From positions 1-25,801 of the IMG/VR virus record IMGVR_UViG_3300031953_000091: a stretch of DNA of 25,801 nucleotides, one strand, 5' to 3'. Each line of letters opens with the position of its first letter. Position 1 is the stretch's first letter. Position numbers and translations under genes: made by a program. Source of the stretch: a virus. Its lineage: Duplodnaviria > Caudoviricetes. Below, in pieces: positions 1,985 to 12,565 of this stretch. The notes beneath the pieces were generated by a model. That model had not been told where the DNA came from. It worked only from the letters and a program-made list of their open reading frames with translations, and did no database searches.

Positions 1985-4878
1985 TAGATACCTTCCCTGT
2001 AGCCGGCTTTGCGGGTGTCTTCTTCTTCGTCGAGCACTGATGCGACGACGGCGCGCATGACGCCCTTGAGCCCGTTGCCGAGGTCGAGGGTGCCGGTGAG
2101 CTTCATGCCCGTCATGGATCGGCTGGAGGCCGTGGGCGCGCCGCCGGCCGACCCGTTCGCAAACGACTTTGCCCCACCGGATACCAGCTGATACCCGAAC
2201 CGGTCAGCGATGTCAGCGAGGATCGCCGTAGAGCGCACTCGCTTGGACTGGGCCAGGGGGATGTACCCCTCACCTTCCGTCTCCGGTTCAGCCCACACGC
2301 GCATACTGCCTGCCTTCGCGATCTGGGCGACGTGGTTCTCTGACACGCTGCCGTTGGCGTGGTAGCTGACCACGGCGCCGTCTGCCTGCGTGATACCGCC
2401 GGACCCGCCGGGGCCCGTGGACACGTGCATGGACATCGTCGAGCCGATGCCGTTGATGAGGTCCTGAATCTTCTGCAACCGCTCTTGCGCTGCCTGTGTA
2501 TCCGCGTACGCGGTGAAGTCGGCCTTGGTGGGGATGTGCAGGATCTTGTCGCTGAGGTCCTTCGCGGCTTGTCCAGTGATGCCGAGCGCGGCGATGCGGG
2601 CGTCGATCTGCCCTTTGCTGGCCTCGAGCGAAGCCTGGTAGTCCTCGTACGATCCGCCAGAGTCCACGATGGCCTGCCCGGCGCCGCCAGCAGCCGACGC
2701 GATGTCGTCGAGGGCGGACTGAAGGGTTGCTCCCTTCTCGGTCGTGATGTCGAGGTCCGTGCCCGCTTGATTGAGGTGGGCGCCGTTCTCCTTCAGTGCC
2801 GCGTCGAAGTCCCGGTACGACGATTCGAGGTTGCGGGCGGACTCCCGTGCGTCGAGGTTCTTCCCGTTGAGTGCATCGAGCTCGTTGGCGAGGTCGAGGA
2901 CGGAAGTAGTAACCCCGTCGACGGCCTCGGTGACGGCCTCGTAAGCGGGCACAGCGTCATCGGCGGTTCCCGTCGACGACTCCATGGCGTCCTTGTGTTC
3001 CTGCCACGCACGCTTCGCCTCGGTGAGCTTGCCCTGCGTTCCGGTGATCGCCCCCTCGACTTCCTGAAACGACTTGCTGATAATGGCGCTGGAATTGCCG
3101 GACGACTCGACTTCGGCCTTATGCTCGGCGAGTTTCTCGTTGACGATCTTGAGAGCGTCGCCTTCGCCTAGGATTGCGTCCGTCATCGTGCCCAGGTCGA
3201 TCCCGCTGAGCTTCGCAGCCTTCGCGACGCCCGACGACTCCAGCTCGTTGATGATGGCCTCGCGAGTGTTCTTCGTGAACGCGCCGGTGTTCTCGTCCAG
3301 GGATGCGGTGTACGAATCCATGGTCGCTTTGCTGTCGGCCTGCTTCTTCGCGAATGCGCCGAGCACGACGGCCGCAGCGGTGAGCACGATGCCGACAGCG
3401 CCGCCGGCGGCAGCGGTGCCCCGCATGGTGGTGTTCAGTGTGGTCAGTGCCGCACGGAATGCGACGATCTTCGGGACGGCCAGCAGGAACGTGCCGCCGA
3501 GGAGCAGAGCGGCGCCGGTAGCGATGCCGATGGTCTGTACTGTGCCCTGCACGCCCTCGTCGAGGGACCCGTACCAATCCGTGACGCCGATGAGGATCTG
3601 CACCATTTCGCGCAGAGTCCCATTGGCCTGGCCGCCGGTCTTGATGAGGATCGAGTCCATGGACCCGCCGAGCAGTTCGAGGTCTCCGAGGAGGTTGTTC
3701 GTCTTATCCGCGGCCTGCTTCGCGGCGAATCCCTGGTCGTCGACGTTGTCGGTCCACTCTTTGACGCCTTCCGCGCCTGACTTGTAGAGGATGCCGGCAG
3801 CGCTTGCCGCTTCCGCGCCGAAGATCGCGCCGAGGGCGGCGGATCGGGTTTCTTCGTCGAGGTCTCCGAGGCCGTTCTGCAGCTGCTCAGCCGCGCCCTG
3901 CATGCCGATAAAGTTGCCCTGCGCGTCGAACACCTCGATGCCGTACTTCTTCATCTCCTCGGCGCCCTTGGCGACCGGGGCGGTGAGGGAAGAGATCACG
4001 CTGCGCAGGCCGGTACCGGCCTTCTCGCCGAGCAGACCGTTCGCAGCCAGCAGTGCCAGCGTGCCCACGGTTTCCTCGAGCGGGATGTTGAGGCGGGCGA
4101 ACGTGACACCGACGTACCCGAGGCCGAGAGAGAGGTCTTCGACCGAGCCTTGAGCCTTGCCAGCGCCGGCGGCGAGCAGGTCGGCGACGTGCCCGGCCTG
4201 GTCACCCTTGAGCCCGAAGACAGACAGAGTCGTGGCAGCAATTTCAGCGGCCCGCGCGACTTCGAGTTCACCCGCGGCTGCGAGTGCCAGGGATCCTTTC
4301 AGCCCGCCGCCGAGGATGTCGCTGACAGCGACGCCGGCCTTCGCAAGCTCGGTCTGTGCGTCTGCGGCTTCTTTCGCCGAGTAGATCGACGCGGCGCCCT
4401 GCTCGATCGCGGACTCTTTGAGGAGCTTCTGCTGCTCGATGTTCGCTTGCGTCGCGGCCACCGTCTTCGAGCTGGCCTCGTCGAACTTCGCGTACGTGCC
4501 CACGGTGAGCGCGGCCATCGTGAGAAGGGCCGCGCCGATGCCGACCGCAGCGACGCCGACAGTCTTGGCGGCATCCTCCGATTTCTTCTTGAGCTCTGCG
4601 ACCTCGGCGGCGGTCTGCTTCACCTTGGGGGTGGCGGTGGCTGCCTCGTCGCCGAGCTTCTTCGTCGCCGTGCCCGCGCCCTCGACGGGTGCCTTGGCAT
4701 CCTTGCTGGCCTTGCCGGTCTTGTCGACCTCGGTGCCGAGCGGTGCGACCTTCTTCGACGACGTTTCGGCGGACTTGCCGAGGTCGTCGATGGCCTTATC
4801 GGCGGCTTTCGCGTCCCGTTGGAATACCTCCGCTCCCATCATTTGGAGGGCGAAGCTGATTGCGCCTGCGTTGAACAC
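1984..4878 (-). CDS. Tape measure protein (TP901-type core)
   Basis: 964 aa, Ala-rich and helical; YSAKEAADAQTELAKAG, ADLLAAGA, G.KAGTGLRS, AIFGAEA motifs; C-terminal WAEPETEGEGYIPL; GTG start with AGAGGTG RBS. Confidence 0.95.
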   Translation of the reverse strand: MFNAGAISFALQMMGAEVFQRDAKAADKAIDDLGKSAETSSKKVAPLGTEVDKTGKASKDAKAPVEGAGTATKKLGDEAATATPKVKQTAAEVAELKKKSEDAAKTVGVAAVGIGAALLTMAALTVGTYAKFDEASSKTVAATQANIEQQKLLKESAIEQGAASIYSAKEAADAQTELAKAGVAVSDILGGGLKGSLALAAAGELEVARAAEIAATTLSVFGLKGDQAGHVADLLAAGAGKAQGSVEDLSLGLGYVGVTFARLNIPLEETVGTLALLAANGLLGEKAGTGLRSVISSLTAPVAKGAEEMKKYGIEVFDAQGNFIGMQGAAEQLQNGLGDLDEETRSAALGAIFGAEAASAAGILYKSGAEGVKEWTDNVDDQGFAAKQAADKTNNLLGDLELLGGSMDSILIKTGGQANGTLREMVQILIGVTDWYGSLDEGVQGTVQTIGIATGAALLLGGTFLLAVPKIVAFRAALTTLNTTMRGTAAAGGAVGIVLTAAAVVLGAFAKKQADSKATMDSYTASLDENTGAFTKNTREAIINELESSGVAKAAKLSGIDLGTMTDAILGEGDALKIVNEKLAEHKAEVESSGNSSAIISKSFQEVEGAITGTQGKLTEAKRAWQEHKDAMESSTGTADDAVPAYEAVTEAVDGVTTSVLDLANELDALNGKNLDARESARNLESSYRDFDAALKENGAHLNQAGTDLDITTEKGATLQSALDDIASAAGGAGQAIVDSGGSYEDYQASLEASKGQIDARIAALGITGQAAKDLSDKILHIPTKADFTAYADTQAAQERLQKIQDLINGIGSTMSMHVSTGPGGSGGITQADGAVVSYHANGSVSENHVAQIAKAGSMRVWAEPETEGEGYIPLAQSKRVRSTAILADIADRFGYQLVSGGAKSFANGSAGGAPTASSRSMTGMKLTGTLDLGNGLKGVMRAVVASVLDEEEDTRKAGYREGI

Positions 4879-5598
4879 CGGCCATCACCTCTTTCTGTAG
4901 CCAGGACGGCTCGGGGTCGTCGATGAGGCGGTGAATGGCGGACCGCACGAAATGCCATGTGCGGGTGTCGAGCGCCCGGTCAAGGTCCGGGATGAGGCCG
5001 TGCTGGGCGAGGTCCAGCTCGACCTCGCCGAAGAGCTGCGGGAGCGCGAGGCCGTACAGCTCTACTGCGGTGATGCTCCGGGCGTCGTGGTCGACTGCTT
5101 CGGTTTGCGCGACCGCTTGTTGGCCGGCAGCCGCTCGGAGGCTGTAGTACTCGCTTCGGTACGCTGGGTACGTGCCTGTGACCGGATCAGGCTTTCCAAT
5201 GCCGTACTTGGCGCGGTCTGCGTTAGTGAGATCCCCAAACTCATGGTCAGGAGCAGGAGCGCTTTTTTTGCGCCAGCCATGCCTTCACCGCCGCTCAGGT
5301 AGGCGTCGACACCGTCGAGGCCGAGGACGGTCTGCCAGTAGAACGCGGGCAGCAGAACGCTCTGACCCTCGCTGAGGCTGAGTTCGTCCTGCACCCGCTC
5401 GTACACGGCGGCGCCGACGGCCTCTTCGAGCACAGCCTCCATCTCGGAGCCGGGCCGTTGACTGGCGACGATCTCGATGAAGAGGTTCGTGAGTGCCTGG
5501 CCGCGTCGGCCGCCGAGCGGGGGAATGATGAAGGGCTCTTCGATGCCGTCGATGTGGATGGCGAGGTTGCGGCCTTGGAGTGTGGCGGTGGTGGTCAT
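4796..5598 (-). CDS. Tail assembly chaperone, -1 frameshift fusion product (gpGT-like, ~267 aa)
   Basis: The -1 frame after the heptamer is open for 155 codons to TAA at 4798-4796: SAPAPDHEFGDLTNADRAKYGIG...EVELDLAQHGLIPDLDRALDTRTWHFVRSAIHRLIDDPEPSWLQKEV. It has no own start, so it is absent from the ORF track. Confidence 0.8.
5062..5598 (-). CDS. Tail assembly chaperone (zero-frame product, gpG-like)
   Basis: 178 aa between major tail/HNH and tape measure; ATGA overlap with upstream HNH; contains A AAA AAA heptamer. Confidence 0.85.
   Translation of the reverse strand: MTTTATLQGRNLAIHIDGIEEPFIIPPLGGRRGQALTNLFIEIVASQRPGSEMEAVLEEAVGAAVYERVQDELSLSEGQSVLLPAFYWQTVLGLDGVDAYLSGGEGMAGAKKALLLLTMSLGISLTQTAPSTALESLIRSQARTQRTEASTTASERLPANKRSRKPKQSTTTPGASPQ
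5263..5269 (-). promoter_or_regulatory. Programmed -1 ribosomal frameshift slippery site (A AAA AAA)
   Basis: GCA AAA AAA GCG in frame at codons 110-113 of the chaperone gene; X XXY YYZ pattern at the canonical locus. Confidence 0.8.
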
Positions 5599-6131
5599 GA
5601 TTCTCCCTGTATAGAGTCAGCTGATTGTTGGCGAACGGAACGTCTCTTGGCTGCATGCTTCGCGTTGCGCGATCGTGCGCACTCGCGGCAAGCTCGGTAA
5701 GCGCGAATGTCTCCGTCGACAGCTACGCGCGTGCATGTTTTCGTATTTTCTGGGGTGAACTCGTGACCATGAACGCAGTGGGTTTGAGTCGCATGGTGGT
5801 TGTTCCCATGTCGCACGGTGTCGCGATTGTTTCCGACGTACGAGCCATATCGGAGGTTGCTCGCGCGGTTGTCAGTCTTGATGCCGTTGTTGTGGCAGAC
5901 GATCAACCGATCAGGTCGCGGCCCGATGAAAGCCGCTGCGACAAGATGATGAATCTTGTACGCTTTGGCGCTGCCGTTCAGGCGTAGGCCAACCGTTAGG
6001 TACCCCGATCCTGCATAGCCGAGCTTGCGGAGCCTCCCAGTGGCAACTGACCGGACTCTGCCCAGATCGGATATTTGATGCTGTGTCTCGTGCCCAGGTG
6101 TGGGCCGCCAAGTCTCTTTGGTGTTTTTCAT
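5595..6131 (-). CDS. NUMOD4-HNH homing endonuclease with C-terminal Zn-finger
   Basis: Real gene is the last 178 aa of ORF 5595..7025: ETWRPTPG...ISDLGRVRS (NUMOD4), IHHLVAAAFIG...VCHNNGIKTDNRASNL (HNH_3-like), HCVHGHEFTPEN...CREC. Confidence 0.92.
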   Translation of the reverse strand: MKNTKETWRPTPGHETQHQISDLGRVRSVATGRLRKLGYAGSGYLTVGLRLNGSAKAYKIHHLVAAAFIGPRPDRLIVCHNNGIKTDNRASNLRYGSYVGNNRDTVRHGNNHHATQTHCVHGHEFTPENTKTCTRVAVDGDIRAYRACRECARSRNAKHAAKRRSVRQQSADSIQGES

Positions 6132-6184
6132 TTCGTCCGTCAGCTCTTTCGCGAGGTCGTTTTGTTGGTGCGGATGGTGTGGGG

Positions 6185-6212
6185 GCCGGGCGGCCAGTGA
6201 TGACCGCCCGGC
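6185..6212 (-). terminator. GC-rich stem-loop after the major tail gene (no U-tract)
   Basis: GCCGGGCGGTCA-TCAC-TGGCCGCCCGGC, 7 nt after the stop codon. Confidence 0.6.
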
Positions 6213-6219
6213 AGGGGTG

Positions 6220-6966
6220 CTACGCCCGGGTGTAGGGCAGTGCGTCGCTGACGCCGATGGCGTTGGTGAGGACGATCGGTGCGGACCCGGCGGTGCCGGT
6301 GGGCACTTCGAGCACGACGATGTTCGGCTCGCCCGGGATCTGCTCGATCGACGTGACTGCCGTGCCGCCGATGGTCGCCGCGGTGATTGCGTCGACCTTG
6401 TAACCGCGCACGTACACGTTCTCCGACGCCGCAGCGCCCGTCGGAAGTGCCGACTCGAGGACGGGAACGCCGGTGCCAGCGATCGGAGAGGCGACGTCGC
6501 GCACGACACCGTTCGACGTGAGCGTGAAGGTGTACCCGCCCTTGTCTGCGTAGCCGGTGGTGAGGTCGGCGACGGTGACGGTGAAGTTGCCTTCGATCGC
6601 ACCGAGCGCGGGGTCCTTCGCGTCGAACACCTGCACGTCGACGGCGTTCGCGGCGCCGGTGGCCTTGGCGATTCCGAGCAGGGCGACGAGCCACGTCTGC
6701 GCGATGGCGCCCGTGTTGTCGCGAACCGCTTCTGCGGCGAAGCTGACCACGTAGTTGTCGCCGAGCTTGGACTCCGAGGTGCGGCCCTTGTTGCCGTAGT
6801 TCTCGCGGGTGACGACGATCTTGGTGGGGACTGCGGCGAGCGCGTTGACGTCGCCGGTGATGTTCTCCCAGGCACCGGTCCGCTTGATGCGGATGATTTT
6901 CTCGTGTGCGAGGGCGAGGGTGCCCTCGGTCTGCTGCGTGCTTTCGTACAAGCTGAGATCGGCCAC
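6220..6966 (-). CDS. Major tail protein with C-terminal Ig-like (IPT/TIG-type) domain
   Basis: 248 aa; synteny upstream of the chaperone; tail tube-like N-terminus; C-terminal VYVRGY...ATIGGTAVTS...LEVPTGTAGSAPIVLTNAIG.S; GGAG RBS before GTG. Confidence 0.88.
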   Translation of the reverse strand: MADLSLYESTQQTEGTLALAHEKIIRIKRTGAWENITGDVNALAAVPTKIVVTRENYGNKGRTSESKLGDNYVVSFAAEAVRDNTGAIAQTWLVALLGIAKATGAANAVDVQVFDAKDPALGAIEGNFTVTVADLTTGYADKGGYTFTLTSNGVVRDVASPIAGTGVPVLESALPTGAAASENVYVRGYKVDAITAATIGGTAVTSIEQIPGEPNIVVLEVPTGTAGSAPIVLTNAIGVSDALPYTRA

Positions 6967-7066
6967 GTGGGTCTCCTAAACGTGTTGGCTGAGGCCCGTG
7001 TGGGCCGTGGGTCTGGCGGGGTCACCAGTAGGCGTCACCGGTTGGTGACGCTGGATTGTGGGGGTA

Positions 7067-7907: not shown

Positions 7908-8636
7908 TTAGGTGATGATCGTCGCGCCCTTGCTCAGGTTGCAGAACGCGTGGGACGGTTTGATGTTTTCCATGCTGTGTGCGCCGCCCTTGGACAGCGG
8001 GTGCACGTGGTCGAAGTGGAGGTCGCTCATCGTCAGGATGTCGACCGAGCAGATGTGGCAGGTCATGCCGTCGCGGATGAGGATCGCCGAGTAGTCGACG
8101 TCGCCGATCGTCGCGGACATCTTGCGTGCCTGGTAGCGACGGGTCTGCTCGCGTGCCTTCTCAGGGTTGGCCGCATACCAGCGGCGCTGACGGTCCGCTG
8201 CGGCCTCCTTCTGGCCCGGCGCATTCCGGTACAGCAGGCCGTGCCGCGCGGTCTTCACTGGGTCATAGGCGGCACGGCAGTGACCCTTGAAGCACTCGCG
8301 GCAGTGCGAGTAGAGCCCGTCGATCCGCCGTGGGTCCGTGAAGAACTCTGTCTTCGGCATGTGCACGAGACAGGCCGTGCATGTCTTGTGGGTGCTGGCA
8401 AGGCGGCGGGCCGCGGCGGCTGCCCGCGCCTGACGTTCTGCGCCGTACTTTGATTCGCCCCATGCTGCGTGCCGCTCGCGCTGGTAGTCGGGCCGGGCAT
8501 CGAGGTACGCCTTGTTCGTGGCGTTCTCTCGCGCCTTGTTCCGCGAGTAGTAGTCCCTGCGATAGTGCGGCTTGCACATGCCGCGAGCGTTGGTCGGGCT
8601 TTCACAGCCATCGACTGAACAGGTAGAATCTGTCAT
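7908..8636 (-). CDS. HNH endonuclease with N-terminal Zn-finger repeats
   Basis: CSVDGC...RGMCKPHY; KTCTAC...EF...DGLYSHCREC; RDGMTCHIC...HFDHVHPLSKGGAHSMENIKPSHAFCNLSKG. Start at 8636 (AAGGG RBS) or 8660. Confidence 0.93.
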   Translation of the reverse strand: MTDSTCSVDGCESPTNARGMCKPHYRRDYYSRNKARENATNKAYLDARPDYQRERHAAWGESKYGAERQARAAAAARRLASTHKTCTACLVHMPKTEFFTDPRRIDGLYSHCRECFKGHCRAAYDPVKTARHGLLYRNAPGQKEAAADRQRRWYAANPEKAREQTRRYQARKMSATIGDVDYSAILIRDGMTCHICSVDILTMSDLHFDHVHPLSKGGAHSMENIKPSHAFCNLSKGATIIT

Positions 8637-8708
8637 ATCAACCCTTATCCGGTTGGTCATGCCCCGGGAGCCTGCCAGCTCGCCGGGGTCTTTCGTGTCT
8701 CCATCTTA
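8637..8708 (-). promoter_or_regulatory. Putative promoter and double-hairpin leader of the HNH gene
   Basis: TAAGAT (8708-8703), hairpin 8662-8688, then CAACC-GGATAAG-GGTTG covering the RBS. Confidence 0.5.
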
Positions 8709-9463: not shown

Positions 9464-9766
9464 TCAGGCCCCCTTCCCGCGGGTGCGTCGCCGTGCGGGC
9501 GCCTGGCGTTCGACGTTCGCGGCGTCCGGGAGCTCGTCACTGGTGCCGTCGAGGTCAGCGGCGAGCGTCACGGGGAAGTCGTTTTCGAGGCCGGTGAAGC
9601 GGCCCCGGGGCAGCGGCTCCGTGACGCGATAGCCGTTCTGATGAAGAGCGCCGCGCAGGTTCGGTGCGTCGGTGAGATCGACCTCGGCCACACCGTCGAT
9701 GAAGATGATGCCGAGAGTGTCGTGGTGCTTGCCAGCGGGGCGAGTCGGGTGAAAGACGTGAGCCAT
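9464..9766 (-). CDS. Hypothetical (probable virion-associated) protein
   Basis: 100 aa from ATG 9766 with GGAGG RBS; GIIFIDGVAEV...QNGYRV. Confidence 0.7.
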   Translation of the reverse strand: MAHVFHPTRPAGKHHDTLGIIFIDGVAEVDLTDAPNLRGALHQNGYRVTEPLPRGRFTGLENDFPVTLAADLDGTSDELPDAANVERQAPARRRTRGKGA

Positions 9767-9830
9767 GGTGTGCCTCCGTGAGGGTTGGCCACCCTGCCCT
9801 GTACAGGCAGAGCAGGGTGGGGAATGTGGG

Positions 9831-12011
9831 TTACGGCTTGCCGTCGGCGAAGCTGAGTTGCTCGCGTGCGCTGGCACGCTTCCGGCCGGTGAGGTCGATG
9901 TGCTCCCTCATTTGGGCTTGTTTCGCCCGGACCTTCAGCGCAGCGCGCTTCTCATCCGCCGGTGTCCCAGCAACGGCCTCGCGCCGCTTGTACTTGCGAA
10001 TGTCGCGCTCAATGGACCGCTGCTTCTCCCGGGCAGCCTCAGCCTGTGGGTCGTACTCTTGGCCTGCCTGGGGGATCGTGAGGCCCGGAAGGTATGCCAC
10101 CTCTTTGTGGCGGCAGTTGTGCACTACAATGGAATCAGCGGTATACCAACCCCCGCCAGACTGCAGGTTGTACACATGCCCCGAGTAGCCGCGCCGTTCG
10201 ATATTGACGATGCAATCCTCCGATACCAGGCCGGAGAGAGCATCCCGAAGATCGCGGCCACCATTGGAATCAGCGGAGATACCCTCCGTCGCCGGCTGCG
10301 GTCCAGAGGCTGCACGATCAAGTCGCCCGGCGTCGATCCGACTTGGCTGCCGGAAGCTATCCGCCTCTACCGATCCGAGGGCCTCCCTCAGGTGGAAGTC
10401 GCAGATCGAGTTGGCGTCAGCCCTCAGGTCGTCCAGTTCTGGATCAGCAAGGCCGGAGAGCAGATCACGGCCAGTGAGGCCATGCGCCGCCGCCTCGCCG
10501 CGGCGAGCCCCGCCGAGCGGCAGGACCTGAGTCGCGCCGCCCATGACGCCGTCCGTGGCATGAAGCGCACTCAGGATGACCTCAACAAACGAGCCTTCGG
10601 AAAGGAACGGGGCCAGTCCCACGCCACAGCCGAGGAACTCGCCCTCGGCCGCTCCATTGAAGCTCTCGGCCTCACCGTCCGCCCGCAGCAGTCGGTCAGC
10701 AAATACAACCTCGACCTGGGCGTGGGCGATACCGTCGCCGTGGAAATCTTCGGAGGATCCTGGCACGCTTCGGGTCGTCACATGGCGCGACTTCCGCAGC
10801 GTCTCGTAGACCTCGCCGATGGGGGTTTCAACACCCTCATGATCTGGTCCGCCCGGCAATGGATGCTCGACATTCCCGCGATAGCTCAGGAGATCCTGAC
10901 CTTCCACGAGCGCACCCGCGTCGACCCATCCTTCCGTCGTCAATATCGGATGGTTTGGGGTGACGGTGACTTCGTGTCCAGCGGATGTGTGGATGATGAT
11001 GACCTCTCCCTCAAACCAACGCGAATCAGCCGCAGCGATGCCGGTCGGGGCTGACACCGGCACGAATCCCGGGAAGCAGTTGGGGTGATGAAGGCCAGCG
11101 GCACGAGCAGCGTCGAGCGTCGCGTGGATCTGCACCGTGACTATCTCGTCGCTCGTCGCATGCTGCAGCTGCACCGTCCCCGTCGTCCCATCCGTGGAGA
11201 GGATCTTGCCGACCCACGGCGCACACAGTGAGCACGAGTCACCGGCACCGACCGGGGTGACGAGGTTCACGCCGACCTGCTGCATCCGCCACACGCCCGC
11301 ATCGTTGAACGCCCGGTTCACTGCGGTGCGCCCGGCCATTTCGGCGTACGAGCCGATGCGCCAGTTCCGGTCAGCTTTATCCACGAACCCGGTGATGCCC
11401 TGCCCGAGGAACCGTTGAACGGCCAACTGCTGCGAGGCGAGGTTCGTGGACGCGCCGAGGATCGTGTTCGAGGCGGTGAAGCTGATGACGCGTTGGAAAG
11501 CGTCCTGCGGGTAGCGGGCGATGCGCAGCGCCATCGTTTCGAGGCGCGAGGTGAGGTCGAGGGTCAGCATCGTCGCGGCCTGCGATGAGGTGCCCGTCAA
11601 CGTTGTCGTCTGGGGGAGGCGCGCGGCCATGCCGAGCCGGTCAGCGGCCGCAGCCTCGCCGTGCTTCCACGCCGTCGTGATCACATCGAGTGCGGCCTCA
11701 CGGCTACCGAGCTTCCCCGACATCTCCGTGGCCAGGTACTGCAGCTCCCGCAGCGACTGTGCGCGGGTGGCTTGCAGCTCGGCGAGCGCACGGTTGCGGG
11801 CAATGGCCCGGTCGAAGAGGTCGGTCATGTGCGGCGTCATCGTCGTCTGTCGGACGATCTCCTGCAGCTCGAGGTCGCGGTACGCGCGCACGGCGACGGC
11901 GCGAATGAGAGCGTCCTCAGCGTCGGCGTACCGGGCGGCGAGGTTCACGCCCAACTCTTCGATCAAATCCCAGGCTGGAAGTCCAGCAGAGTCGGGGATG
12001 TATTTAGCCAT
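9831..12011 (-). CDS. Minor capsid protein (Phage_min_cap2 / MuF-like) containing an intein
   Basis: GITGFVDKADRNWRIGSYAEMAGRT, CSLCAPWVGKILS, TLDAARAAGLHHPN|CRH...YLPG, QRSIERDIRKYKRR. Precursor 726 aa, about 405 aa after splicing. Confidence 0.92.
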   Translation of the reverse strand: MAKYIPDSAGLPAWDLIEELGVNLAARYADAEDALIRAVAVRAYRDLELQEIVRQTTMTPHMTDLFDRAIARNRALAELQATRAQSLRELQYLATEMSGKLGSREAALDVITTAWKHGEAAAADRLGMAARLPQTTTLTGTSSQAATMLTLDLTSRLETMALRIARYPQDAFQRVISFTASNTILGASTNLASQQLAVQRFLGQGITGFVDKADRNWRIGSYAEMAGRTAVNRAFNDAGVWRMQQVGVNLVTPVGAGDSCSLCAPWVGKILSTDGTTGTVQLQHATSDEIVTVQIHATLDAARAAGLHHPNCFPGFVPVSAPTGIAAADSRWFEGEVIIIHTSAGHEVTVTPNHPILTTEGWVDAGALVEGQDLLSYRGNVEHPLPGGPDHEGVETPIGEVYETLRKSRHVTTRSVPGSSEDFHGDGIAHAQVEVVFADRLLRADGEAESFNGAAEGEFLGCGVGLAPFLSEGSFVEVILSALHATDGVMGGATQVLPLGGARRGEAAAHGLTGRDLLSGLADPELDDLRADANSICDFHLREALGSVEADSFRQPSRIDAGRLDRAASGPQPATEGISADSNGGRDLRDALSGLVSEDCIVNIERRGYSGHVYNLQSGGGWYTADSIVVHNCRHKEVAYLPGLTIPQAGQEYDPQAEAAREKQRSIERDIRKYKRREAVAGTPADEKRAALKVRAKQAQMREHIDLTGRKRASAREQLSFADGKP
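10125..10168 (+). promoter_or_regulatory. Candidate -10 box (TACAAT) and RBS (AGGT) for the antisense endonuclease
   Basis: TACAAT at 10125-10130; AGGT at 10165-10168, 7 nt before ATG 10176. No good -35 at 17 bp. Confidence 0.4.
10176..11054 (+). CDS. 2xHTH + Vsr/DUF559-like (PD-(D/E)XK) endonuclease, antisense and nested inside the intein
   Basis: 292 aa: AILRYQAGESIPKIAATIGISGDTLRRRL and AIRLYRSEGLPQVEVADRVGVSPQVVQFWI (HTHs); TAEELALGRSIEALGL...QQSVSKYNLDL...VAVEIFGGSWH...DLADGGFNTLMIW (nuclease); strong G/C third positions in this frame. Confidence 0.88.
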   Translation: MPRVAAPFDIDDAILRYQAGESIPKIAATIGISGDTLRRRLRSRGCTIKSPGVDPTWLPEAIRLYRSEGLPQVEVADRVGVSPQVVQFWISKAGEQITASEAMRRRLAAASPAERQDLSRAAHDAVRGMKRTQDDLNKRAFGKERGQSHATAEELALGRSIEALGLTVRPQQSVSKYNLDLGVGDTVAVEIFGGSWHASGRHMARLPQRLVDLADGGFNTLMIWSARQWMLDIPAIAQEILTFHERTRVDPSFRRQYRMVWGDGDFVSSGCVDDDDLSLKPTRISRSDAGRG

Positions 12012-12034
12012 GGGATGCATTCACCCCCAGTGAA

Positions 12035-12565
12035 CTAAGTCAGTCGAGCCGCGATTCTTTCCTGCAGCCGCCGTCGAGTGCGGATTAGTTCCCGTGCGGC
12101 ATCGCACGTGCGGCACCGTCGGGTGCCTTGCTTCGTGAAGTAGGTGTTACCGGCATCGAACGGATGGCCCTTGCCGCATTCCGTCATCCGGGCCAGTGGG
12201 TGCGTTCCGTGCTGTACCGCATCGAGAGCATTCTCAGAGCGAGTACCCCACCGAATATTCGACAAGCGATTGTCGAGTGAGTTGCCATTGTTGTGGCAGG
12301 ATTCACGTCCATTACTGTCCCCAAGGAACGCCAGCGCCACAGCCCTGTGTATCCCGATGGTCCTGCCCTCAAGACCTACCTGCAGGTAGCCCTCTTTGTT
12401 CAGCAGCGTCTTGAGTATCCGACCCTTGATGTGGCGGACGCGCCTGCTGTGGCCGTTCCCGCCGAAGTCGATCGTTACGTGGTCGACGGACCGCATCCGG
12501 CCATCATTGCTCACCTCGTACCAGCTCTTGAGCCCAGGGATTTGACGCCATTCGATAGACTGCAC
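12035..12565 (-). CDS. NUMOD4-HNH homing endonuclease with C-terminal Zn-finger
   Basis: EWRQIPG...YEVSNDGRMRS; IHRAVALAFLG...CHNNGNSLDNRLSNIRWGTRSEN; CGKGHPF...RRCRTC; AGGAGG RBS; lower GC. Confidence 0.93.
   Translation of the reverse strand: MQSIEWRQIPGLKSWYEVSNDGRMRSVDHVTIDFGGNGHSRRVRHIKGRILKTLLNKEGYLQVGLEGRTIGIHRAVALAFLGDSNGRESCHNNGNSLDNRLSNIRWGTRSENALDAVQHGTHPLARMTECGKGHPFDAGNTYFTKQGTRRCRTCDAARELIRTRRRLQERIAARLT

Follow-up and report, generated by a model that had tools for sequence, protein, structure and literature searches.

A minor capsid intein with a Vsr-like nuclease gene on its antisense strand: a probable phage homing element in which two proteins share codons

We describe an intein in the minor capsid gene of a Caudoviricetes virus (IMG/VR record IMGVR_UViG_3300031953_000091, positions 1 to 25,801; this whole stretch of 25,801 nucleotides (nt) is hereafter the window) together with a second gene that lies on the opposite strand of that intein. 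The capsid gene is interrupted by a class 1 intein and empty alleles of it exist; the antisense gene encodes a protein with two helix-turn-helix (HTH) units and a Vsr-like nuclease domain, and both reading frames are open, conserved and under selection. We favor the possibility, at a probability of about 80%, that the intein and the antisense gene act as one homing element. The principal features, in window coordinates, are:

9831-12020, minus strand: PF06152 minor capsid precursor, 729 amino acids (Pfam E value 1.1e-38; minor head protein by PHROG)
10116-11078, minus strand: class 1 intein, 321 amino acids, at an H-P-N|C site (splice residues, profile match, empty alleles)
10176-11054, plus strand: antisense nuclease gene, 292 amino acids, HTH-HTH-helical linker-Vsr/EDxHD-like domain (Pfam, profile, model, selection)
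10203-10304, plus strand: first HTH, residues 10-43 (PF13384, E 1e-8; helices in the model)
10338-10451, plus strand: second HTH, residues 55-92 (PF13518, E 5.5e-7; missing from shorter family members)
10626-10922, plus strand: nuclease core, residues 151-249, with E154, D180, E190 and H197 (structure match, conservation in 178 proteins)

Pfam and PHROG scans identify the window as a phage head-tail module coded on the minus strand. The capsid precursor is made up of a 314-residue N-extein, the 321-residue intein and a 94-residue C-extein, and the coordinates and description of the intein given in an earlier reading of the letters (the original prediction) hold. The residues that define class 1 (Cys/Ser1, Thr-B7, His-B10, His-G6, Asn-G7 and Cys/Ser/Thr+1; PMC4031507) are all present, as Cys1, T40-P-N-H43 in block B, His320-Asn321 and Cys+1, and the +1 residue is Cys in 101/101 relatives. 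The family profile matched Mtu RecA intein structures (E 6e-10) and hhalign recovered a Hint-type splicing domain with 98% probability and an 18-residue gap, on sequence evidence alone; the Pfam Intein_splicing match (E 5e-6) fell under the family cut-off, and single-sequence folding of the intein gave a predicted local distance difference test score (pLDDT) of only 33.6. At loci found by means of the N-extein the intein was absent at the exact site in 15/17 and unchanged in 2/17, with a C-part of 92-94 residues in 12/15 of the intein-less loci, and contigs from 3/4 runs skipped exactly 963 nt at the intein site. Two close intein-less relatives (L185 and L186, position ~2940) read H-P-N-D-R-C, with Asp in place of the +1 Cys, so that a splicing intein could not be hosted there; their C-part is 405 residues long and the site is possibly an escape allele.

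The claim that the antisense strand carries an HTH-HTH-Vsr-like gene is well supported. Pfam assigned HTH_23 (E 1e-8), HTH_28 (E 5.5e-7) and, below cut-off, an MTES_1575 nuclease (E 2e-7) to the open reading frame (ORF), and a 33-row profile matched ngo0050 (E 1e-6), I-Bth0305I (3r3p; E 7.5e-4) and Vsr (E 0.057). The protein model is confident (mean pLDDT 91.4) and folds as predicted, into HTH-HTH plus a Vsr-like nuclease. Its top structural match among 48,161 chains was Vsr (1cw0; Z 10.4, root-mean-square deviation (rmsd) 2.6, 115 residues aligned), and I-Bth0305I (3r3p; Z 8.9, rmsd 2.7, 94 aligned, model residues 151-249) and ngo0050 (Z 8.8, rmsd 1.9, 88 aligned) were matched as well; Foldseek returned nothing for the nuclease model at E 0.001 or better. 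In 178 profile-found proteins the active-site residues are the most conserved positions (E154 in 171, D180 in 178, E190 in 176 and H197 in 173); conservation is quoted from this set because the pattern-found set is inflated at A188-H197 by the search patterns. By profile alignment E170, D196, an extra acidic residue and H213 of I-Bth0305I correspond to E154, D180, E190 and H197, and in the account of that enzyme drawn on here (PMC3239194) N-terminal DNA-binding modules precede a C-terminal Vsr-like domain, as they do in our protein. According to the same account I-Bth0305I has NUMODs and resides in a group I intron, whereas the present nuclease has HTH repeats and a helical A-A-H-D-A-x-R-G linker and is antisense to an intein. 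The ORF was also judged a credible gene from the outset, and its codon score of 0.18 is the best of 21 plus-strand ORF stretches (intein frame, 0.05). The plus frame is open from 9765 (a 429-residue ORF), but we rejected this start as positions 9765-10175 have a codon score of -0.34 and relatives start at a His codon further downstream.

The same arrangement is found in many phages. A tblastn search returned 107 phage records in GenBank; Salmonella phages account for 62, and the others include phages of Pseudomonas, Gordonia, Klebsiella and Vibrio. Pattern scans confirmed 563/600 viral and 448/597 metagenome stretches, of which the best 80 of each were used, and a genome scan confirmed 32/60 stretches, yielding 31 loci. 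The first set comprised 180 entries (7 of them the present element itself) with 124 distinct nucleases. The antisense frame was open in the same register, and no other, in 180/180 entries and 31/31 genome loci; stops in homologs had been proposed as a check on the gene, and both frames are open in register at all 211/211 loci, the nuclease frame even in phages of 41-50% GC. In parsed members the inteins interrupt head morphogenesis proteins at a site of the x-P/x-N|C type (54 exteins scanned: 15 PF06152, 29 MuF, 1 VG15 and 9 without assignment), HTH units vary from one to five, and a profile search, without genomic context, found 1,558 protein clusters with E values no higher than 1e-30. The best genome match was to a Microbacterium contig (51%) and for this reason the host of the present phage is likely actinobacterial. 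With hosts ranging from Actinomycetota to those of enteric phages, a supposedly rare architecture is in fact common and missed by annotation; the antisense ORF was annotated, as hypothetical, in 1/17 GenBank regions.

Selection was assessed as the ratio of nonsynonymous to synonymous change (dN/dS), computed per strand and region over 15 independent pairs. As expected by the original prediction, the plus frame is under the stronger selection in the middle of the intein (0.33-0.34 for the nuclease frame versus 0.64-0.83 for the intein frame). Where the nuclease overlaps the N-terminal splicing region the values are 0.64 for the nuclease and 0.36 for the intein frame, and in the exteins they are 1.19-1.45 antisense and 0.13-0.14 in the host frame. 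The intein-frame middle of this copy would be free of stops by chance with a probability of ~0.11, and among relatives 101/101 are open versus 18 expected. The bias in third codon positions had been put down to the G/C preference of the plus frame; the stronger selection on that frame stands, but a mere GC effect does not account for the bias because C-ending codons exceed extein usage even in loci with low third-position GC (0.40 versus 0.22, 14 loci), which implies that the intein frame shapes the bias beyond genome GC.

As had been noted, the ORF is in codon register with the intein and falls short of its two ends by 60 and 24 nt. It is not, however, confined to the intein middle, given that it spans intein residues 9-301. 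According to the model, intein residues 53-69 lie opposite the final helix of the nuclease core (233-249), and two strands of a C-terminal hairpin (256-271) are antisense to intein residues 31-46, a stretch that includes block B:

10950-10961, minus strand: block B, T40-P-N-H43; the antisense reads nuclease M259-V-W-G262 (codon and column tests)

In 101/101 divergent inteins the nuclease frame is open from intein residue 24 to 30 residues past block B (54.5 expected), and an antisense stop falls within intein residues 1-22 in 97/101, versus 22/101 in a control stretch. With a helix and strands lying on splicing residues, and both frames constrained, two folded domains share codons; this is a natural case of ~880 bases coding two folded proteins on opposite strands.

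The family offers a testable answer to how a hidden antisense nuclease could be expressed, in the form of signals predicted within blocks F and G:

10176-10178, plus strand: nuclease start ATG, antisense of the His301 codon that opens block F (start-codon and CAT counts)
10164-10168, plus strand: predicted ribosome-binding site, a weak CAGGT here and GAGG-type in most relatives (Leu codon bias)
10125-10130, plus strand: predicted -10 box (TACAAT), written opposite the codons for Ile317-Val318 in block G (codon bias; p 0.017, 300 shuffles)

Our reasoning, with codon bias judged against the extein codon use of each gene, is that: (i) the nuclease starts at the His codon before V-Y-N-L with ATG in 78, GTG in 12 and TTG in 1 of 101 relatives, and this His is encoded by CAT in 78/90 versus 25 expected; (ii) the Leu codon is CTC, giving GAGG, in 79/96 versus 30; (iii) block G codons that give TA(T/C)AAT are favored (ATT 61/81 versus 16, ATA 39/51 versus 7, GTA 25/32 versus 2.6), as is the ACA codon that gives an extended -10 (26/40 versus 6); and (iv) z values at the start, ribosome-site and -10 positions are 9-15, versus 1.4-3.0 for nearby control codons and 5.1 for GTA in block A. 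Synonymous change is 0.21 in blocks F-G versus 0.43-0.51 elsewhere, unrelated inteins show no ATT or ACA bias, and in this copy rare ATT-GTA codons preserve TACAAT within a locus of 66% GC. Support from codon bias for an antisense ribosome site and -10 box is thus strong but indirect. A search for a hairpin in the 5' leader found none above shuffles (z 0.55). In 10/101 relatives (L064, L068, L075, L076, L087, L088, L092, L094, L157 and L175) the intein ends S-S-N without a penultimate His; this clade carries Asp at F:4, and its Leu-Ser-Ser codons read antisense as TTGACA, a -35 match spaced 17 nt from a TATAAT-type -10 box that lies elsewhere than the family -10.

Evidence for movement comes from comparing inteins with their exteins. 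The intein is 100% identical between L042 and L044 and between L044 and L125, with extein identities of 74/65% and 78/67%, respectively, which is what a dual-coded mobile unit, as first proposed, should produce; in two Salmonella phages the intein is 96% identical versus 71/88% for the exteins. In the remaining intein pairs extein identity is equal or higher. The extein closest to this copy (91% DNA identity; L182, L183) is without an intein. We considered L001/L181, which have the intein and 717 nt of N-extein in common with the window and differ upstream, but they are identical downstream as well and so indicate a crossover and are no proof of homing. The insertion site has no palindrome. 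We regard homing as likely across the family; for this copy it is plausible.

A scenario that fits these observations is as follows. The head gene would be translated with the intein, which would splice out, removing the antisense shadow of the nuclease and restoring the H-P-N-C-R motif. The nuclease would be made from its own plus-strand transcript, begun at the block G -10 box; block F would provide the ribosome site and the start codon, and translation would stop within the first intein codons. As these signals and the stop lie inside the intein, the whole nuclease cassette would move with it. In a mixed infection the nuclease would cleave alleles that lack the intein, close to the insertion site, and the intein would be copied in during repair.

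The splicing domain that hosts this gene is itself unusual and the following segments are relevant:

10881-11078, minus strand: N-terminal splicing region, residues 1-66, without the usual segment after block A (block B position, hhalign gap)
10116-10220, minus strand: C-terminal splicing region, residues 287-321, with blocks F and G (F:4 is Asn; F:13 without His)
10719-10835, minus strand: intein residues 82-120, constrained in the intein frame (per-column codon test)
10734-10745, minus strand: F-H-G-D motif, intein residues 112-115, antisense to nuclease V187-A-V-E190 (per-column test)

Block B lies at residue 38-41 in 101/101 relatives versus 60-88 in 18 unrelated parsed intein loci, so that the splicing domain is ~18-25 residues short, consistent with the 18-residue hhalign gap after block A. 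Asp at F:4 and His at F:13 are common assisting residues that are not required (PMC4031507); the 101 relatives have Asn (85), Asp (14) or Thr (2) at F:4, Asp being present in 13/14 unrelated inteins, and a His near F:13 in 5/101. The middle (residues 71-286) had been described as filler lacking endonuclease motifs. It does lack LAGLIDADG and HNH patterns, it has no Pfam or PDB match, and 31 members scanned in the intein frame gave Intein_splicing and PT-HINT only, with no in-frame nuclease motif. It is 49% G/A/V/E/D, versus 38% in the N-extein, and more acidic than the nuclease would impose (net charge -8.7 versus +2.6 expected, lower in 89/101), the intein frame preferring acidic and small residues given the nuclease residue (101 relatives). 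The description as filler suits residues 121-280, where 0/155 columns reached z >=4 in a per-column codon test, but not residues ~82-120: 17/39 columns of residues 81-120 reached at least this value. F, H, G and D are kept in 89, 99, 99 and 100 of 101 relatives versus 50, 22, 50 and 54 expected; the motif recurs in 11/13 distinct GenBank phage loci and in 8/8 parsed loci found with an independent pattern, and is kept even in phages whose nuclease has lost G-G-x-W-H.

We think it likely, judging from these codon patterns, that segment 82-120 patches the shortened splicing domain in a structural or catalytic capacity. If it is needed for splicing, this would be a new splicing-domain variant and a function that arose in an antisense shadow. 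We rejected the possibility of the missing Hint segment having been relocated downstream to residues 70-140, since profile alignment gave this a probability of 1-3%; an Atlas comparison (intein clusters at <=0.88) offered no usable match for these residues, and mutual information within the intein was dominated by one clade. An alternative that is possible, if on balance unlikely, is that the F-H-G-D constraint reflects a DNA or RNA signal, such as an operator, and not an intein protein motif. The same 12 bases are retained even in AT-rich phages, the window has five near matches to the 12-mer versus 1.35 expected, and the failure to align residues 70-140 to the missing segment suits a signal too. 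Nevertheless, within the motif the codons for Asp and Gly vary as synonymous change in the intein frame allows (GAC 76, GAT 22; all four GGN), adjoining columns 86-88 and 97-120 are constrained as well, and the motif is fixed although insertion-site DNA varies widely. A bolder proposal, doubtful as it stands, is that intein and nuclease are locked both ways, with the splicing domain supplying the nuclease gene with its promoter, ribosome site, start and stop as well as the last helix, and splicing in turn requiring segment 82-120, whose His and Asp would replace the block F pair. Under such a lock the same codons would specify one enzyme's active site on each strand, and losing the nuclease would no longer be a route by which the intein could become a mini-intein.

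With regard to origin, we infer that the nuclease was once free-standing. The original prediction held that such an enzyme had invaded a mini-intein in reverse; a published origin model says the same (below), but simple insertion between the splicing halves does not agree with a nuclease helix and hairpin that lie on intein residues 31-69. We suggest that the nuclease gene was extended over the splicing domain after capture and that the intein frame then took over part of the nuclease shadow (residues 82-120, including F-H-G-D). It is also conceivable, though we consider it improbable, that an in-frame Vsr-like domain of the intein was flipped by inversion, with the same present function. No free-standing copy of the nuclease occurs among the 211 loci, as inversion would have it, and the single register throughout is compatible with one founding event of either type. 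On the other hand, the searches turned up no intein with a Vsr-like domain in frame (both matches on the same strand are HNH-HTH inteins), the closest relative outside inteins among GenBank phages is the intron-borne I-Bth0305I (E 0.01), and Dassa et al. (PMC2677866), in the sections used here, report split inteins whose halves flank a separate Vsr-like gene.

Several observations weigh against a functional homing element. Expression, splicing and cleavage are predicted from sequence. The ribosome site of this copy scores -3.7 kcal/mol versus -6.8 for synonymous shuffles, and a consensus scan requiring a -35 found none for it. The GTA bias at the -10 position is also seen in unrelated inteins (10/18 versus 4.0), TAYAAT occurs in 7/21 of these and 50/70 in the family (7/21 and 7/11, respectively, when grouped by hand), and because relatives share ancestry the z values overstate independence. 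For this control L211 was taken as a cut family member and L206 and L208 as unrelated QueF-type inteins (at 1227-2717 and 1185-2681, respectively, both minus strand), and 5 duplicate rows were left out. This copy showed no conversion tract bounded on both sides. D222 of I-Bth0305I, as described in the portion of PMC3239194 cited here, is without counterpart, position 206 being Leu in this copy and F/H/L/A/T in the family, flanked by Arg205 and, in the 178 proteins, the invariant Arg209; the N208/H64 position is Phe. The nuclease is thus predicted to be EDxHD-like in action, yet is no strict EDxHD member. Elsewhere in the family some copies may be dead, as suggested by GenBank copies without G-G-x-W-H and by L091, whose nuclease frame meets a stop early on. 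In L003, L004, L009, L011, L012, L013, L014 and L015 the nuclease G-G-x-W-H is partly or wholly gone and the antisense F/L-H-G-D kept, with L003 the exception among these GenBank phage copies in keeping G-G-x-W-H.

These points could mean that the element is as we describe but that this copy is silent or past homing, its gene intact through recent ancestry and poorly expressed or catalytically weak. The weak ribosome site, the missing -35 and the family-wide absence of a D222 equivalent would all fit, as would the persistence of close intein-less relatives in the same runs. We nevertheless give this little credence: the ORF is intact with E154, D180, E190 and H197, rare ATT-GTA codons hold TACAAT in a 66% GC locus, and selection and recent transfers are evident across the family. 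Very unlikely, in our view, is that the antisense protein is chiefly a DNA-binding regulator, or its transcript a means of damping the head operon early, with homing secondary. HTH units numbering one to five, PHROG matches to DNA-binding and regulator families and the convergent transcription that a real promoter would make unavoidable are in keeping with regulation, but the most conserved positions are those of the nuclease active site, and patchy presence together with identical inteins in divergent exteins suits a selfish element. Open antisense frames are frequent in GC-rich genes, and many exist in the window, but the chance that the plus ORF is a mere shadow of this kind is negligible given its confident nuclease fold, catalytic conservation, lower plus-frame dN/dS and openness at 41-50% GC.

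The homing element we favor is not without precedent. The layout had been thought possibly new, but antisense VSR-like nucleases in contiguous actinophage inteins have been reported by Gosselin, Arsenault and Gogarten (bioRxiv 10.1101/2025.01.02.630785), whose preprint already contains the model of a free-standing endonuclease invading an intein and cites older antisense LAGLIDADG cases. Their examples share with ours a contiguous intein, a separate antisense ORF and a minor capsid gene among the hosts of non-canonical inteins (IPR006528 there, PF06152 for this copy). Their model matched 1CW0 with Z 10.6 over residues 144-267, and ours 1cw0 with Z 10.4 over 148-271; 3R3P, matched there by HHpred, was matched here as well. 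The minor capsid inteins of Gordonia phages Malisha, Fosterous and Angelicage are 28-33% identical to ours in the intein frame and 32-34% in the antisense frame. That preprint describes such ORFs as typically outside the splicing domain, whereas here the overlap includes block B; the words 'promoter', 'start codon' and 'Salmonella' are absent from its main text, and the sections covered do not mention a short splicing domain or F-H-G-D. Beyond that main text, then, lie the breadth of the family, the overlap with the splicing domain, the built-in start signals and the short splicing domain with its antisense-shadow motif. With the layout published, a single copy adds little and the family data matter more.

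Dassa et al. (PMC2677866; 2009) had described a Vsr-like endonuclease gene that lies within an intein locus, overlaps the intein coding sequence over short stretches and has expression signals of its own. In the sections cited theirs is a split intein with overlaps of 6-69 bp, compared with a contiguous intein and 879 bp read on both strands here, and neither 'antisense' nor 'opposite strand' is used in them. The ShiLan phage methylases (PMC11855218) are alike in hiding a homing nuclease in another frame of a host gene; as presented in the part of that paper drawn on, the nuclease is of HNH type, on the same strand and without a splicing domain, unlike here. A search that did not extend to subscription journals or the supplements of Gosselin et al. 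found no other literature on the architecture, the promoter or the shortened splicing domain. One discrepancy concerns Angelicage (L015 is its minor capsid gene), Affeca, Keitabear and Sedona, which the covered part of the preprint names when discussing endonuclease VII-like inteins; on the antisense strand, however, the minor capsid genes of all four match the Vsr-like protein, which might be explained by a second intein or by mixed-up labels.

Further endonuclease genes lie nearby. Three free-standing HNH-type endonuclease genes are found in the head-tail module (12035-12565, 7908-8660 and ~5595-6130, all minus strand), two of them NUMOD4-HNH and one HNH/EndoVII-like. One HNH gene is situated immediately upstream of the minor capsid gene, and no match to the stretch that holds it exists in L181, L182 or L183. 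The 476-residue ORF at 5595-7025 is probably over-extended, and a tail-tube-like ORF (6220-6966) occupies another frame. Among relatives, L251 has a second Hint-type insert within the same MuF gene (~2740-3393) and two segments of L113 match the nuclease profile. Finally, more divergent members of the element, matching window positions 10655-10970, were present in runs X1, X6, X7 and X8, some on contigs covered more deeply than this copy.

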